A DNA stretch of 36,714 nt from a virus (lineage: Duplodnaviria > Heunggongvirae > Uroviricota > Caudoviricetes), in IMG/VR virus record IMGVR_UViG_2547132418_000017; one strand, written 5' to 3'. How positions within the stretch are numbered: position 1 is the first letter of the stretch; each line of letters starts with the position of its first letter. The position numbers and the translations under genes are program-made. A model generated the notes under the pieces. That model was not told where the DNA came from, searched no databases, and saw nothing but the letters and a program-made list of their open reading frames with translations. Positions 1 to 20,342 of this stretch are shown here, piece after piece.

Positions 1-54
1 TTTTTTGCGCTCAAATCTGGACGGTTTTAATCATTAATGGCAGATAATTGATCG

Positions 55-76
55 CGTTTTAAATGCTTTTAAAACG
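55..76. repeat. AT-rich palindrome CGTTTTAAA-tgct-TTTAAAACG
   Basis: Perfect 9-bp inverted repeat with 4-bp spacer read directly; a longer version of the same palindrome recurs at 17795..17819. Confidence 0.5.
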
Positions 77-172
77 GGCTTTATCCAGTACCCGTTCCCT
101 CTTCTCATTTCTTAGTTTTGATGTGGTTGTTGCTGATTAGTTAGCAGTATGCGCCCCGCCAAAACGAGGCGC

Positions 173-850
173 TCATGCTAATTTTTTGCTTACAGGCTTC
201 GTTTCTTGCTCCGGCGTGGCAACGGTCTGACCACCAGGCGACCCAGCCCGTGCACGAGATTCGATGCGTCGCAAAATCTCTTTGTCAGTTTCTTCATTAC
301 CAGCCAATGCCATGCAAATAGCGTCTTTAAGCGATTCCCTGATGTTTAGGCTTCTGATGGCAGTCTCTTGTTCGTCCAGGTCGCTGTCGGCCTGCATAGC
401 TTGCCTGGTGGGTTGTTGTAAGCGTTCCAAGACTCCTTTGATACCGATGTTGTAAAAAACATCAAGCAAAACATCTAAATCTTGAGCATTCATGCGCTGT
501 AATAGGAGATTTAATTCTGTTCTTTCGGTCGGATTTTGTTGCGGATTATTGTTTTCTGTAGCGGATTTTCCTGAAATTAACCACTCTACGGGAACATTGC
601 ATGCATGAGCCACCAAAGCTGCGCTGTCTATACCTGGGTAGATCTTCCCCTGCACGTACTTTCGTATTGTGGCTTCAGATAACCCACTCAGTTTTGACAG
701 TGTCATGTAATTTAATCCGCTGCCTTCCATAGCTGATTTAAGGCGCTCGCCGAAGCGGATTATATCCATAGCCTCAATAATCCGTTCTTTCTCGGTTTGC
801 TTGCTTGCGGTTTTATCTGCGTAACCGTTTCTTTTTAAAGAGTTTTTCAT
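173..850 (-). CDS. Prophage repressor, N-terminal HTH (XRE/CI-like), 225 aa
   Basis: Leftward ORF divergent from the early operon; N-terminal helix-turn-helix-like segment LSKLSGLSEATIRKYVQGK; not similar to the Mu c repressor sequence as I recall it. Confidence 0.7.
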   Translation of the reverse strand: MKNSLKRNGYADKTASKQTEKERIIEAMDIIRFGERLKSAMEGSGLNYMTLSKLSGLSEATIRKYVQGKIYPGIDSAALVAHACNVPVEWLISGKSATENNNPQQNPTERTELNLLLQRMNAQDLDVLLDVFYNIGIKGVLERLQQPTRQAMQADSDLDEQETAIRSLNIRESLKDAICMALAGNEETDKEILRRIESRARAGSPGGQTVATPEQETKPVSKKLA

Positions 851-864
851 ATTGCACCTGTGGC

Positions 865-917
865 ATACAAAAATCCGTCAAGACAAATACAAAAATCCGT
901 TGACAGCGGATTTTTGT
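865..917 (+). promoter_or_regulatory. Candidate operator: three copies of ACAAAAATCCG (two direct, one inverted)
   Basis: ATACAAAAATCCGT at 865..878 and 887..900; inverted copy CGGATTTTTGT at 907..917; copies 889..899 and 907..917 form a perfect 11-bp inverted repeat with 7-bp spacer. Confidence 0.55.
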
Positions 918-928
918 TTCACTAGGAT
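900..928 (+). promoter_or_regulatory. Candidate early promoter (Pe-like): -35 TTGACA 900..905, 17-bp spacer, -10 TAGGAT 923..928
   Basis: Consensus -35 hexamer sits inside the operator inverted repeat, about 60 bp upstream of the ner start. Confidence 0.5.
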
Positions 929-988
929 TTATCACATCAGATAAATGGTTTTGATTATCTGAATCGATAAATTGGAGAGGATCACACA

Positions 989-1261
989 ATGCAGTTATCG
1001 AGACAAGATCTAACTGACTTGTTTGTTCGTCGCGGACAAGACTGGTCTAGCAAAGCAATTGCAGCCGCCCTTGATAATAAAGGGGTTGATATCACTACGA
1101 TGGAGCGTGTACGCGGCTTAAAACCTGGTGCAATGCGTAACGTGTTTTATCGCCGCGTACCTGCATATGAATCAGCAATTGCAGAAGCAATTGGTGTGGA
1201 ACCGGAAGTTATCTGGCCATCACGTTATCGGAATAAAAATCCGCATAGCAACGCTGCATAG
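989..1261 (+). CDS. ner: Ner-like DNA-binding protein (Mu Ner/Nlp family), 90 aa
   Basis: First gene of early operon; C-terminal PEVIWPSRY matches the conserved Ner motif; SD GGAGAGG 974..980. Confidence 0.85.
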   Translation: MQLSRQDLTDLFVRRGQDWSSKAIAAALDNKGVDITTMERVRGLKPGAMRNVFYRRVPAYESAIAEAIGVEPEVIWPSRYRNKNPHSNAA

Positions 1262-1269
1262 GTGATGTT

Positions 1270-3312
1270 ATGTGGATTACAGCAAAAGAGTGTGCTGGCA
1301 TTGGAGGGCTACCAACACGTGAACACAATGTCAGAGCACGTCTAGATCGTGTAATTGAGAATAAACCTGAATTAAGGCGCAAGCGTGAAGGCACAAAAGC
1401 ATTCGAGTATCACATCGACTGCCTGCCCGCTGAAGCGGAGAAAGTTTTACGTAAGCGCCTGACCCATCAGGTCCTGGAAGATACGCAACTGCCCGCCGTG
1501 GTTGAGCAGAAGGCAGTTAAAAACGTTACCGTTCGCGATGAACTGGAGGTGATGGTCAAATGCCCGGAACTGGCATTACGCGAAGTTCAGGCACTGACTG
1601 ACAAGCAAAAAGCCATCGCAGATGCGCGGATATTGCTGGCTACCGAAGTGCATAAACTGCGTGAATACGCAGGAATGTCCAGGACGGCGGCGATAAAACA
1701 CATCGTTGATGGTATCCGGCAGGAGGCTTTGCCCGAGCGTGTTATTGTGGCAGGTAATACCGCCAATGCCCGACAGGGTAAGCGAACTGGCGTCAGTACA
1801 GGGAGTTTACAGGAATGGTATTCCGCCTGGCTGATGGCGCGCGGTGATGCCAATCAGTTACTGGCGTTACTGGCTCCCGGTCATCATAAGGGGACACCGT
1901 GGGAGCAGGTCTGGTGGTTGAGCGATTTCTTAATGTTCTATCGCTCATGGAAGCGCCCGACCGTTGAATATGCGTATCGCGAGTTTTCAGCCTGGTGGCA
2001 TGAAAAACACGCGAATGATGCGGGAATGCTGGCAGCACTGCCTTCAGTTCATGCAGTAAGACGGGTGTTAAGCAGCGTCCCGGTGATTGTTAAAGAGCGT
2101 TTCCGCTCCACCGGTTCAGCCTGGCGTTCGCTCAATCCCTTTGTGCGGCGCGACTGGACATCATTACCGGTTAATGCGGTATGGGTCGGGGATGGTCACT
2201 GTATGAAAATGACCGCGTTTAACCCCCTGACCGGCAATATTTTCCGGCCAGAAGTAACGCTGGTTATGGATGCGGGACAACGCTTTGTTGTGGGCTGGTC
2301 ACTGTCCCTGTCGGAGAACGTGATAGCCGTTGCTGATGCGTTACGTTACGGCATGGCGCAGCACGGGATACCGCTGGTTTATTACTCCGATAACGGGGGC
2401 GGTGAAAAAAACCGGGTGCTTGATGCCGATATTACCGGGATTCTGCCCCGGCTGGGTGTGGAACATCACACGGGGATACCAGGTAACCCGCAGGGGCGCG
2501 GGGTGATTGAAAGGCTTAATAAGGAAATTCCCCGGGATGTGGCCCTGAGTTTCCAGACGTACTGCTCAAAGGGAGCAGACAAGGAAACCGTAATGATGCA
2601 GCAACGGATTATGCAGTCAGCCATTAAGGCCACCCACAAAGGGAAAGAACTGACAAAACGGCAGGTTAAGGCGAGGGATGAAATCCCCACCTTTGAGCAG
2701 CTGATGGCAGCTATAGAGCTGGAGGTCAGACGCTATAACAACCGACCACACAGCAGCCTTCCCCGCAAAGAGGATGGCGAATATTACAGCCCGGCAGCGT
2801 ATCGCCGGAAACTGATAAAAGAGCAGAATGTTGAAATTGATTTCCTGTCGCCGGAAGAACTGCATGAAATGTTCAGACCGGAAGTGACGCGCAAAACATT
2901 TCGCGGGGAAATTCAGTTATTCAACAATATTTATTACTCGTATGAGCTGGCCGCAGAGCACGGGAATGAAGTCAGGGTCAGTTACGATATTCATGATGCA
3001 AACAGCGTCATTGTCCGGCGGGCTGATGGCTCTTATATCTGCGATGCCATCTGGAACGGTAACAAGGTTGATGCCTTCGCTAAACCAGTTATCGAACAAA
3101 AACTGGAGAAACGCGTCAGAGGCCGCATTGCACGGGCCACGCAGAAAATCGAAGAGGCTAAACGCGAGCTTACCCCGGCTATTACGCAGAAACCTGACTT
3201 TAATTTTGGATTTGGTCTGGAGCGCCCGGAGAAAAAGGATAAAGAAGAACTTTATTTATTTGCATCTGAACGCGAACGCAATTTAAAGAAAAACGGCACA
3301 AACAACCGTTAA
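1270..3312 (+). CDS. Mu-type DDE transposase A, 680 aa
   Basis: Size and position after ner; catalytic-core-like motifs VWVGDGHCM and VYYSDNGGGE. Confidence 0.9.
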   Translation: MWITAKECAGIGGLPTREHNVRARLDRVIENKPELRRKREGTKAFEYHIDCLPAEAEKVLRKRLTHQVLEDTQLPAVVEQKAVKNVTVRDELEVMVKCPELALREVQALTDKQKAIADARILLATEVHKLREYAGMSRTAAIKHIVDGIRQEALPERVIVAGNTANARQGKRTGVSTGSLQEWYSAWLMARGDANQLLALLAPGHHKGTPWEQVWWLSDFLMFYRSWKRPTVEYAYREFSAWWHEKHANDAGMLAALPSVHAVRRVLSSVPVIVKERFRSTGSAWRSLNPFVRRDWTSLPVNAVWVGDGHCMKMTAFNPLTGNIFRPEVTLVMDAGQRFVVGWSLSLSENVIAVADALRYGMAQHGIPLVYYSDNGGGEKNRVLDADITGILPRLGVEHHTGIPGNPQGRGVIERLNKEIPRDVALSFQTYCSKGADKETVMMQQRIMQSAIKATHKGKELTKRQVKARDEIPTFEQLMAAIELEVRRYNNRPHSSLPRKEDGEYYSPAAYRRKLIKEQNVEIDFLSPEELHEMFRPEVTRKTFRGEIQLFNNIYYSYELAAEHGNEVRVSYDIHDANSVIVRRADGSYICDAIWNGNKVDAFAKPVIEQKLEKRVRGRIARATQKIEEAKRELTPAITQKPDFNFGFGLERPEKKDKEELYLFASERERNLKKNGTNNR

Positions 3313-3330: not shown

Positions 3331-4224
3331 ATGAGTTTAATTACGCAATTAAATGACGTAATGGCCCGTCGCGGCTATACGCAGACCCACGTCGCCCGTG
3401 CTATTGGTCGTAGCAGCGCCGTTATCAACCAGTATTTACAGGGTAAATATCAGGGCGATATGGCTGATATTGAAGAACGCATTTCTGCCTTCGTGACCCG
3501 TGAGCGGGAAAAGGAAAACAGCCGCCGTATTAAAGCAAAGTTTGTGACCACCGGTATGGCTGCCAAAGGACTGGAGGTGCTGGCCTACGCTCACCTGGAA
3601 TGTGAAATCTGTGTGCTGTATGGCGCGGCAGGTCTTGGCAAAACAATGATTCTGCGTGAATACGCCTCCAGAAACCGGGATGCGGTCCTGATTGAGGCTG
3701 ACCCGGGCTATACAGCCAGGACACTGCTTGAGGAGTTGTGCCGCCAGCTGGGGGTAAAGGTTCGCGGCAACATTCACGAACTGATTGATGCCTGTGTGCG
3801 CGAACTGCGTGATTCCGGTCGTCTGCTGATGGTGGACGAGGCTGAACTGCTCCCCTATCGCGCACTGGAGGTTCTGCGCCGTCTGCATGACAAAGCGGGT
3901 ATCGGGGTTGTCCTGGCGGGTATGCCTCGTCTTCTGATTAATCTCAAGGGGCGTCGTGGTGAATTTGCGCAGTTATACAGCCGCGTGGCGCTGGCGCTTA
4001 ACCTGGGCGACATGCTGGCGCAGGAAGATTTTAACCAGATAGCCACCGGGCTGATGCCGGAAGCAGCAGAACGGGAAATCAGCGAGGCGCTTTACGCACG
4101 CTCGCTGGGTAATGCCCGCCGCCTGTTCAAACTGGCGCGTGGTGTGTACCGGATTTGTGATATCAGCGATGCGCCGGTCAGTGTGCAGGCCATTGATAAA
4201 TTCGCAGAAATGTTAATTCACTGA
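3331..4224 (+). CDS. Mu-type transposition ATPase B, 297 aa
   Basis: Walker A GAAGLGKT, Walker B LLMVDEAE, N-terminal HTH-like segment; immediately downstream of transposase A. Confidence 0.9.
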   Translation: MSLITQLNDVMARRGYTQTHVARAIGRSSAVINQYLQGKYQGDMADIEERISAFVTREREKENSRRIKAKFVTTGMAAKGLEVLAYAHLECEICVLYGAAGLGKTMILREYASRNRDAVLIEADPGYTARTLLEELCRQLGVKVRGNIHELIDACVRELRDSGRLLMVDEAELLPYRALEVLRRLHDKAGIGVVLAGMPRLLINLKGRRGEFAQLYSRVALALNLGDMLAQEDFNQIATGLMPEAAEREISEALYARSLGNARRLFKLARGVYRICDISDAPVSVQAIDKFAEMLIH

Positions 4225-19433: not shown

Positions 19434-20342
19434 GTGTTTGTCAACGTTAAAAACGTCAAACAGATTTTTATCAATCTGAAGGCCACCTTCCAGAAAGCCT
19501 TCGACCAGTCACCAACTGACTGGCAGAAGGTGGCAATGGAAGTGCCATCAAACGGCAAGGAGAACGACTACAGCTGGTTAAGTCGTTTCCCGAAAATGCG
19601 CGAGTGGATTGGTGACAAGGTCGTCAAATCACTGGCGGCATTTAACTACACCATCCGTAACAAGGACTGGGAAGCCACGGTTGAAGTCGATCGTAACGAC
19701 ATCGAGGACGACCAGATTATGGGCTATGCCCTTCAGGCGAAAGGGGCCGGACAGTCGGCGGCAGAGCTACCGGCAGATATTGTGGCGTCCCTTATCAGTA
19801 ACGGTTTTACCAATCCATGTTACGACGGTCAGATGTTCTTTGATACCGACCACCTGGTCGCCGGTAAATCGGTGTCCAACAAAGGCATCAAAAAACTCAA
19901 AGTTGGCTCGCTTGCCGAGGCGAAAGCCTCCTACGGTGCCGCCCGTACGGCCATGCGTAGTCTGAAAGATGACGAAGGCGCATCCCTCAAAATTCGCCCG
20001 AATCTGCTGGTTGTGCCACCGGCGCTGGAGGATGACGCGAACTACCTGATGACCGCCGAGAAGTTCCCGGACGGCACACCGAACCCGTACCGCAATACCG
20101 CCGAGGTACTGGTGATGCCGGAGCTGGCGTCGGATTCTGCGTGGTTCCTGTTTGACACCACCAAACCGGTGAAACCGCTGATTTATCAGCTGCGTAAAAA
20201 GCCTGTTTTTGTGGAGCAGACGGACTACAACAGCGACAACGTGTTCAAGCGTAAGAAGTTCCTGTTTGGTGCCGAAGCGCGCTGTAACGGCGGTTACGGC
20301 TTCTGGCAGATGGCATTTGGTTCTGATGGTACGACGGAGTAA
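19434..20342 (+). CDS. Major head subunit (Mu T-like), 302 aa
   Basis: GTG 19434 with strong SD AAGGAG 19422..19427; size and position of Mu major capsid protein. Confidence 0.8.
   Translation: MFVNVKNVKQIFINLKATFQKAFDQSPTDWQKVAMEVPSNGKENDYSWLSRFPKMREWIGDKVVKSLAAFNYTIRNKDWEATVEVDRNDIEDDQIMGYALQAKGAGQSAAELPADIVASLISNGFTNPCYDGQMFFDTDHLVAGKSVSNKGIKKLKVGSLAEAKASYGAARTAMRSLKDDEGASLKIRPNLLVVPPALEDDANYLMTAEKFPDGTPNPYRNTAEVLVMPELASDSAWFLFDTTKPVKPLIYQLRKKPVFVEQTDYNSDNVFKRKKFLFGAEARCNGGYGFWQMAFGSDGTTE

Follow-up and report, generated by a model that had tools for sequence, protein, structure and literature searches.

The question raised by this locus is which protein reads an 11-bp word that is repeated three times around the early promoter of a Mu-like prophage. 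The window, that is, the whole stretch of 36,714 nucleotides that was analysed, has the Mu early layout in its left 4.2 kb. An immunity repressor gene (173..850, minus strand, 225 aa, Pfam HTH_3 on residues 38-91, phrog_3037) points leftward and is followed on the plus strand by a ner-like early gene (989..1261, 90 aa, Pfam HTH_35 with E-value 2.6e-19, phrog_769), a Mu-type transposase gene (1270-3312, PF02316 and Mu-transpos_C) and a MuB-like ATPase gene (3331-4224). The intergenic region between the repressor and ner genes measures 138 bp. Near-identical elements (93-95%) are found in unrelated places in E. coli chromosomes and in a plasmid, as expected of a transposable prophage. According to a left-end alignment of relatives, about 87 bp of the prophage precede the window on the left, which places the early promoter region about 990 bp from the prophage left end, as in Mu. 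The relatives L001-L009 reach leftward to a common TG..AGCCTTGAGTGG... terminus, beyond window positions 1-172. On the other side, the right edge of the window falls inside a gene, and the window is therefore not a complete prophage.

Distant relatives were taken from Klebsiella phage Kp4866-3, species-representative genomes, contigs encoding repressor homologues and IMG/VR contigs. Loci with relatives were obtained from Kp4866-3, Leminorella, Izhakiella, Pluralibacter, Edwardsiella, Sodalis, Salmonella, E. coli and IMG/VR contigs. The phage collection searched was without a close relative (one 190-bp match at 70% identity in Kp4866-3, one 167-bp match elsewhere), and the literature search returned no study on the operators of this repressor family and no characterised close relative among the papers searched.

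The word ACAAAAATCCG is present on the plus strand at 867-877 (site S1) and 889-899 (S2), and as its reverse complement CGGATTTTTGT at 907-917 (S3); S1 and S2 thus read CGGATTTTTGT on the minus strand. S2 and S3 are the arms of a perfect inverted repeat, and the 7-bp spacer between them (900-906, TTGACAG) contains the hexamer TTGACA at 900-905, which is followed after 17 bp by TAGGAT at 923-928. All these positions had been given correctly in the preliminary description. A promoter scan of positions 1-1500 returned a single sigma-70-like site, namely these two hexamers, which match 10 of 12 consensus positions. We call this plus-strand promoter (900..928) Pe. S2 abuts its -35 hexamer, S3 lies within the spacer between -35 and -10 (20.0 bits with the weight matrix described below), and S1 is an exact copy at a distance of 41 bp from S3 (19.1 bits). 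As observed, the units are 11-14 bp long and non-palindromic, with two direct copies and one inverted copy.

The three copies at 867-917 are the only exact ones in the 36.7-kb window, while about 0.02 would be expected by chance for a given 11-mer in 2 x 36.7 kb. With up to two mismatches, 25 matches were counted versus 12.3 +/- 3.4 in shuffled sequences (none of 100 shuffles reached 25), and 8 of the 25 fall in the interval 530-1243. The shuffle counts, together with the clustering of sites in the weight-matrix scan, rule out a chance origin of the motif. Very probably, judging from their sequence and arrangement, the three copies around Pe are binding sites of the immunity repressor. For the best explanation of the data as a whole, in which the three ACAAAAATCCG copies serve as operator units of the prophage's immunity repressor, we would put the probability at roughly 0.8.

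Comparison with related Mu-like prophages, a check proposed in the preliminary description, revealed a common layout of the immunity region in about 30 of them (Enterobacterales and IMG/VR contigs). In a comparison of four E. coli prophages with 93-95% identity, substitutions concentrate at 852-866 and 878-884. Both Pe hexamers are unchanged, and the three motif copies are nearly untouched, with small changes only at the edge of the leftmost copy. Relatives from several genera have a TTGACA-like hexamer, a spacer of 17 bp (counted by eye) and TAnnnT at the same place. In every Mu-like relative, one site begins 1-2 nt past the -35 hexamer and one or two sites of opposite orientation lie upstream, so that S3 corresponds to the most constant element of the switch. 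The outermost site is 41 bp from the promoter site in 11 of the 11 ATCCG-class loci scanned (classes are named by motif core, see below). The promoter is thus real and conserved, and the repeats behave as the operators overlapping an early promoter that they had been proposed to be.

The inner site is less regular, being 19 bp from the promoter site in the lineage of the window and 28-29 bp in most other relatives. The arrangement is therefore a flexible one, of which the perfect 11-bp inverted repeat with its 7-bp spacer is the form seen in one lineage. It had been suggested that a dimer on this inverted repeat is the functional unit. This view is not supported, because the left arm either abuts the -35 hexamer or lies about one helical turn farther away, and because an intragenic pair of sites (below) has the opposite polarity. 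The element is instead the 11-bp unit itself. Half-site centres 19-29 bp apart are unusual for a simple XRE dimer, a point against the reading as repressor operators.

Two loci with repressor homologues, L012 (Pectobacterium betavasculorum) and L013 (Brenneria sp.), have an operator-like layout ACAAAAATTCG ... TTGATA ... CTTTTTGTTCG, followed by the remnant GAG(G/A)ATCACACAATAC and then no ner reading frame. They may be degraded or domesticated prophage remnants.

The switch had also been described as compact, which proved too narrow, as the repressor gene and the ner-like gene contain at least four more class-specific sites. The whole window was scanned with a weight matrix derived from the promoter-proximal sites of relatives only. 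Seven sites reached at least 13 bits in 36.7 kb, and six of the seven lie in 541-1244. Relative to the promoter site, the intragenic sites are found at about -135 (repressor codons 23-32), about -365 (repressor linker) and about +325 bp (ner).

The sites in repressor codons 23-32 form an inverted pair at 755..784, with GCGGATTATAT at 755-765 and TCAATAATCCG at 774-784, which encodes R-I-I ... I-I-R-F. These codons carry the locus's own operator core in 16 of 16 loci, always 21 nt apart. RII and IIRF are encoded by CGGATT...AATCCG, RT(I/F) and IVRF by CGTACT...AGTACG, and RFL and INRF by CGGTTT...AAACCG; in L045, IMRF is encoded by AATGCG. Residue x of the I-x-R-F sequence follows the DNA core, being I, N, V, T or M for ATC, AAC, GTA, ACC or ATG, respectively.

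The distal left site (541..554, plus strand, GCGGATTATTGTTT, 19.3 bits) occupies codons of the repressor linker, 365 bp from S3. It has class-specific counterparts in L024 (GCGTACTTTTC) and L030 (CCAAAGTACGA), is missing from L020-23, and is weakened in L003 by a change of one core base. Weaker copies at 530-540 and 561-574 were also considered as sites, but are unsupported, since their core bases change in L002-4. The distal right site (1231..1244, minus strand, GAATAAAAATCCGC on the plus strand, 18.6 bits) occupies ner codons 81-85, 325 bp from S3 and 26 bp ahead of the transposase start. Each of the 11 ATCCG-class loci scanned has it, at +324 to +338. In L024, these codons read CAAAAGTACGA and encode NKSTR in place of NKNPH. 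Loci in which the C-terminus of Ner differs (L011, L014-16, L025-26) lack the ner site.

Some relatives exceed the window in intragenic sites: L015 (Izhakiella, codons 5-25), L018 and L045 have three or four operator-like units within the first ~30 repressor codons, and in L015 a TTGACA lies between such units. The only strong operator-like match of the window outside the immunity region is at 19460-19473 (ACAGATTTTTATCA, 14.6 bits), probably by chance.

The motif core varies together with the DNA-binding domain of the repressor, and the cores ATCCG, AACCG, GTACG and ATGCG were found, although this covariation is based on few independent lineage events. The ATCCG core accompanies the repressor sequence SGLSE(A/T)TIRKY, and CGGATT(A/T)TTGT goes with the window-type HTH. 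A GTACG core, (G)CGTACTTTTG, is present in five loci of another HTH subgroup (L024-26, L029, L030) with the N-termini RT(I/F)...IVRF, L045 has an ATGCG core (TGCGCATTTTT), and Klebsiella phage Kp4866-3 has TCGGTTTTTTGT. Operator words unrelated to these accompany the repressors with a 186-CI-type domain (L006-9) and the one with a Mu c-type DNA-binding domain (L005, TTTAAACA repeats). The repressor domains with their own operator words amount to a ready-made specificity table for XRE domains.

Two pairs of loci separate the repressor from the other candidate readers. Within the pairs L020/L023 and L031/L034, the Ner proteins and the transposase N-termini are identical, and the repressor domain and the outer positions within the sites differ, which indicates that the sites track the repressor. 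Conversely, L020 and L024 have nearly identical Ner proteins and yet differ in motif, which indicates that Ner is not what the sites follow. Taken together, these comparisons make the repressor the best candidate reader and exclude Ner.

The possibility that the ACAAAAATCCG repeats are bound by the Ner-like protein, as an analogue of Cro, had to be considered as Ner-type proteins of Mu and D108 act in the corresponding repressor/ner intergenic region. In addition to the identical or nearly identical Ner proteins of L020, L023 and L024 combined with a different motif in L024, a separate palindrome with an invariant GATTATC accompanies the Ner type, and we regard binding of the repeats by Ner as very improbable. 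The palindrome is a second inverted repeat at 927..972, with the arms ATTTATCACATCAGATAA (927-944) and TTATCTGAATCGATAAAT (955-972) and the motifs GATAA and TTATC, and it spans the Pe start region. GATTATC is found in every relative with this Ner type and is invariant across genera. By its sequence and position, 927-972 is the probable operator of the Ner-like protein. In L006-9, which have a different Ner type, GGATAAC repeats are found at the same place. Conservation of the adjoining ribosome-binding region of ner (973-991, GAGAGGATCACA(C/T)AATG) far exceeds that of its surroundings, with almost no variation from Escherichia to Sodalis and Izhakiella.

For the repressor gene, a minus-strand promoter scan gave no convincing consensus promoter. 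The conserved GATTATC contains a candidate -10 hexamer, GATAAT (954..959, minus strand), which is without a consensus -35 and was not called by the scan. By analogy with Mu, our guess would be that it belongs to a leftward repressor promoter face-to-face with Pe.

Even less credible than binding by Ner is a role of the inverted repeat 889-917 at the RNA level, as a hairpin that would act as an intrinsic terminator, possibly in both directions, or as some other RNA structure. A terminator scan does flag 889-917 on the minus strand, and RNA of the repeat folds at -14.3 and -15.3 kcal/mol (z scores -4.4 and -4.6). However, the repeat is upstream of both divergent genes, not at the 3' end of a transcription unit, and its loop contains a consensus -35. 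G-C pairs make up only 4 of the 11 stem pairs, whereas an intrinsic terminator has a G+C-rich stem followed by a U-run. The 7-nt loop is 15-17 nt long in relatives, in which the arms can also be unequal (AACCG versus CGGATT in L014-16), which breaks the pairing. A hairpin would also leave the third, direct copy and the intragenic copies unexplained. Given this context and the loss of the stem in relatives, we reject the terminator or hairpin.

A rival of more substance comes from the transposase, since its N-terminus covaries with the motif class as well, so that on sequence grounds the repressor is not the sole candidate reader. The PF02316 match covers transposase residues 6-141. Codons 1-42 (1270..1395, plus strand), the recognition part of the winged-helix subdomain I-alpha, vary with the immunity and operator class: residues 1 to ~42 differ by immunity type, whereas the remainder is 86-95% identical. 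Transposases of the GTACG class have FP(A/S)AEKN where those of the ATCCG class have LPTRE(H/Q)N, and two distinct transposase backgrounds show this split by class. The transposase N-terminus of L005 is similar to the Mu-type repressor of the same locus. In Mu, the operator region is also the transposition enhancer (hence the label O/E; PMC3820752), and subdomain I-alpha is what binds it (PMC3362531); the site cluster of the window lies at about the same distance from the left end as in Mu. These data suggest that the transposase reads something class-specific in the region, possibly the same units. Alternatively, the transposase N-terminus and the motif may covary by hitch-hiking within one recombination block.

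It could then be argued that the units are bound mainly or only by transposase subdomain I-alpha, as an enhancer, and are not operators. We consider this unlikely, though less so than binding by Ner or a hairpin. The constant site within the -35/-10 spacer is needed by a repressor, but not by an enhancer. L020 versus L023 and L031 versus L034 show that the repressor domain and the outer positions within the sites can change while the transposase N-terminus remains identical. Moreover, the prophage needs repressor sites at Pe, and the 138-bp intergenic region holds no other repeated candidate. Since the first ~40 transposase codons vary with the operator class, the operator sites may double as transposition enhancer. 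A more specific version, in which the XRE repressor (using the units as operators) and transposase I-alpha (using them as enhancer) would both read the 11-bp units, and the operator class would dictate residue x in codons 23-32, is tentative and in our estimate rather doubtful. If it were true, the Mu-type competition of repressor and transposase at one set of sites would have survived the replacement of the repressor DNA-binding domain, and the residue in I-x-R-F set by operator class would be a clear example of a protein sequence constrained by a regulatory code. The locus offers a means of testing whether a transposase of the Mu type still depends on an operator-coincident enhancer once the repressor is not its paralogue.

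The repressor protein was analysed by domain searches and structure prediction. HTH_3 (E-value 3.2e-6, 27.5 bits versus a Pfam curated cut-off of 23) and HTH_31 were the only Pfam matches, and the protein matches phrog_3037 ("transcriptional repressor") with an E-value of 6.9e-67. The AF2 model has a confident HTH domain (residues ~20-98), followed by a linker that is disordered (99-110). The C-terminal domain (111-202) is helical and modelled with moderate confidence, and the tail, which ends KKLA, is again disordered. In a Foldseek search of the model against the PDB, the HTH domain alone was matched (C.AhdI, P22 c2, 434, lambda repressor N-domain), with TM-scores normalised by target length of ~0.9 to C.AhdI, P22 c2 and 434 Cro. 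Nothing informative was found for the C-terminal half, and a sequence search of the PDB gave weak HTH matches only. The DNA-binding domain is thus of the XRE/HTH_3 type and not the winged helix of Mu c, in agreement with the earlier suggestion of an XRE/CI-like rather than Mu c-like repressor.

The same description had gone further and spoken of a lambdoid-type repressor, a label that does not fit the remainder of the protein. The C-terminal 117 residues have no Pfam match even at an E-value of 10, no S24/LexA-like domain was detected in them, and the C-terminal half is common to sister proteins with a Mu c-type DNA-binding domain (L005, P0043). Pfam searches also found neither Phage_CI_repr (PF07022) nor the C-terminal wheel domain of 186 CI in the window repressor. 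Residues 90-185 of Mu c match positions 89-184, that is, the C-terminal part, of phrog_3037 with an E-value of 1.1e-4. Weaker signals came from the family HMM against Mu c (E-value 0.004) and from hhalign (P 0.02, collinear), and the P0043-P0133 alignment extends through the C-terminal half. The homology of the C-terminal half to that of Mu c is a signal from profile methods only, as pairwise BLASTP of the repressor or its C-terminal half versus Mu c or a Mu c relative gave nothing significant.

One C-terminal scaffold (window 173-445, L005-L009) stands behind three unrelated N-terminal domains, namely HTH_3, Phage_CI_repr and the Mu-type PF02316. The Mu c-like C-terminal half, together with the sisters that have other N-domains, points to an exchanged DNA-binding domain and not to a lambdoid CI. 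Judged from sequence comparison, the repressor is best described as a Mu c-type protein in which the DNA-binding domain was replaced by an XRE domain. Absence of the S24 self-cleaving domain makes RecA-driven induction unlikely. With at least three unrelated repressor DNA-binding domains on one Enterobacterales Mu-like backbone, each accompanied by an operator word of its own at the same positions, some of them within coding sequence, the family represents a natural experiment.

The recombination joint of the N-domain exchange lies in the linker. The tail of the repressor family ends KK(L/S/Q)A, and Mu c ends with KKAV. The C-terminal tail of Mu c has been linked to ClpXP control.

How the parts might work together can be outlined from the sequence anatomy, the conservation and the covariation. 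Repressor on S3, S2 and S1 would block Pe, since repressor bound in the Pe spacer and next to the -35 hexamer would exclude RNA polymerase. The block would keep ner, the transposase genes A and B and, with them, the lytic cascade silent. We propose that XRE-type domains bind the units while tethered by a flexible linker to an oligomerising, Mu c-like C-terminal domain. The linker is disordered and varies in length, which fits such tethering, and flexible tethering would explain function in either orientation and with spacings that differ by about one helical turn. The units at 755-784, 541-554 and 1231-1244 would most likely raise the occupancy of Pe via DNA looping. In addition, the intragenic units may allow the repressor to limit its own synthesis and to prevent transcription from running on into the transposase gene. 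The second regulator would be the Ner-like protein, on the GATAA palindrome 927-972. Binding, promoter start sites, looping and oligomeric state are all predicted here, and a looping function of operators that lie within genes can be put to the test at this locus.

Among known systems, Mu and D108 are similar in most respects. They too have a leftward repressor gene and, in the opposite direction, ner, A and B, in a transposable prophage and at a distance of about 1 kb from its left end. The early promoter is overlapped by several short repressor sites, some in each orientation, with a Ner operator next to them (sites and operator are predicted in our case). As between Mu and D108, the swappable immunity module extends from the repressor N-terminus to transposase codon ~40. 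In its C-terminal half, the repressor is related to Mu c, and both proteins have a disordered basic tail. The difference is in the DNA-binding domain, which is XRE/HTH_3 in the window and a winged helix (PF02316) in Mu. Hence the homology between repressor and transposase domains that explains the identity of operator and enhancer in Mu is absent from the window, whereas the sister L005 has it, its repressor domain being homologous to transposase subdomain I-alpha. Also unlike Mu, the intergenic region of the window is short, part of the site set lies within coding sequence, and neither an IHF site nor a Pc promoter was identified in the window.

The CI switch of phage 186 is similar in having three sites at the lytic promoter and distal sites about 300 bp on either side. 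In 186, the distal FL and FR sites strengthen repression by looping onto one repressor oligomer (PMC3675496). The window counterparts at -365 and +325 (19.3 and 18.6 bits) match this arrangement at the sequence level, and the sister repressors L006-L009 carry the 186-type Phage_CI_repr domain. The window protein, however, lacks this domain, and its C-terminal half matches no Pfam family, whereas the wheel oligomer is a feature of 186. Moreover, the window element is a transposable phage and 186 a P2-like integrating phage.

With the lambdoid phages lambda, 434 and P22, the window shares the XRE-type (HTH_3) fold of the repressor N-terminal domain and the presence of three sites between divergent repressor and early genes that overlap the early promoter. 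In contrast to the lambdoid repressors with their S24/LexA-like self-cleaving dimerisation domain, the C-terminal half is all-helical in the AF2 model. The units are 11 bp long, direct and inverted, and variably spaced, unlike the three palindromic lambdoid operators of 14-18 bp (~17 bp, each with one dimer), and the second regulator is of the Ner type (HTH_35), not Cro.

An immunity switch of this sort is expected in a temperate phage and not a surprise in itself; the feature belongs to a known kind of switch, of which it is an uncharacterised variant. Pseudomonas Mu-like phages of the D3112/B3 type combine Mu-type transposition genes with a lambda-CI-like repressor, and the combination of Mu early genes with an XRE-type repressor is therefore not new in itself either. 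The window family keeps a Mu c-like C-terminal half and has three alternative N-domains on one scaffold.
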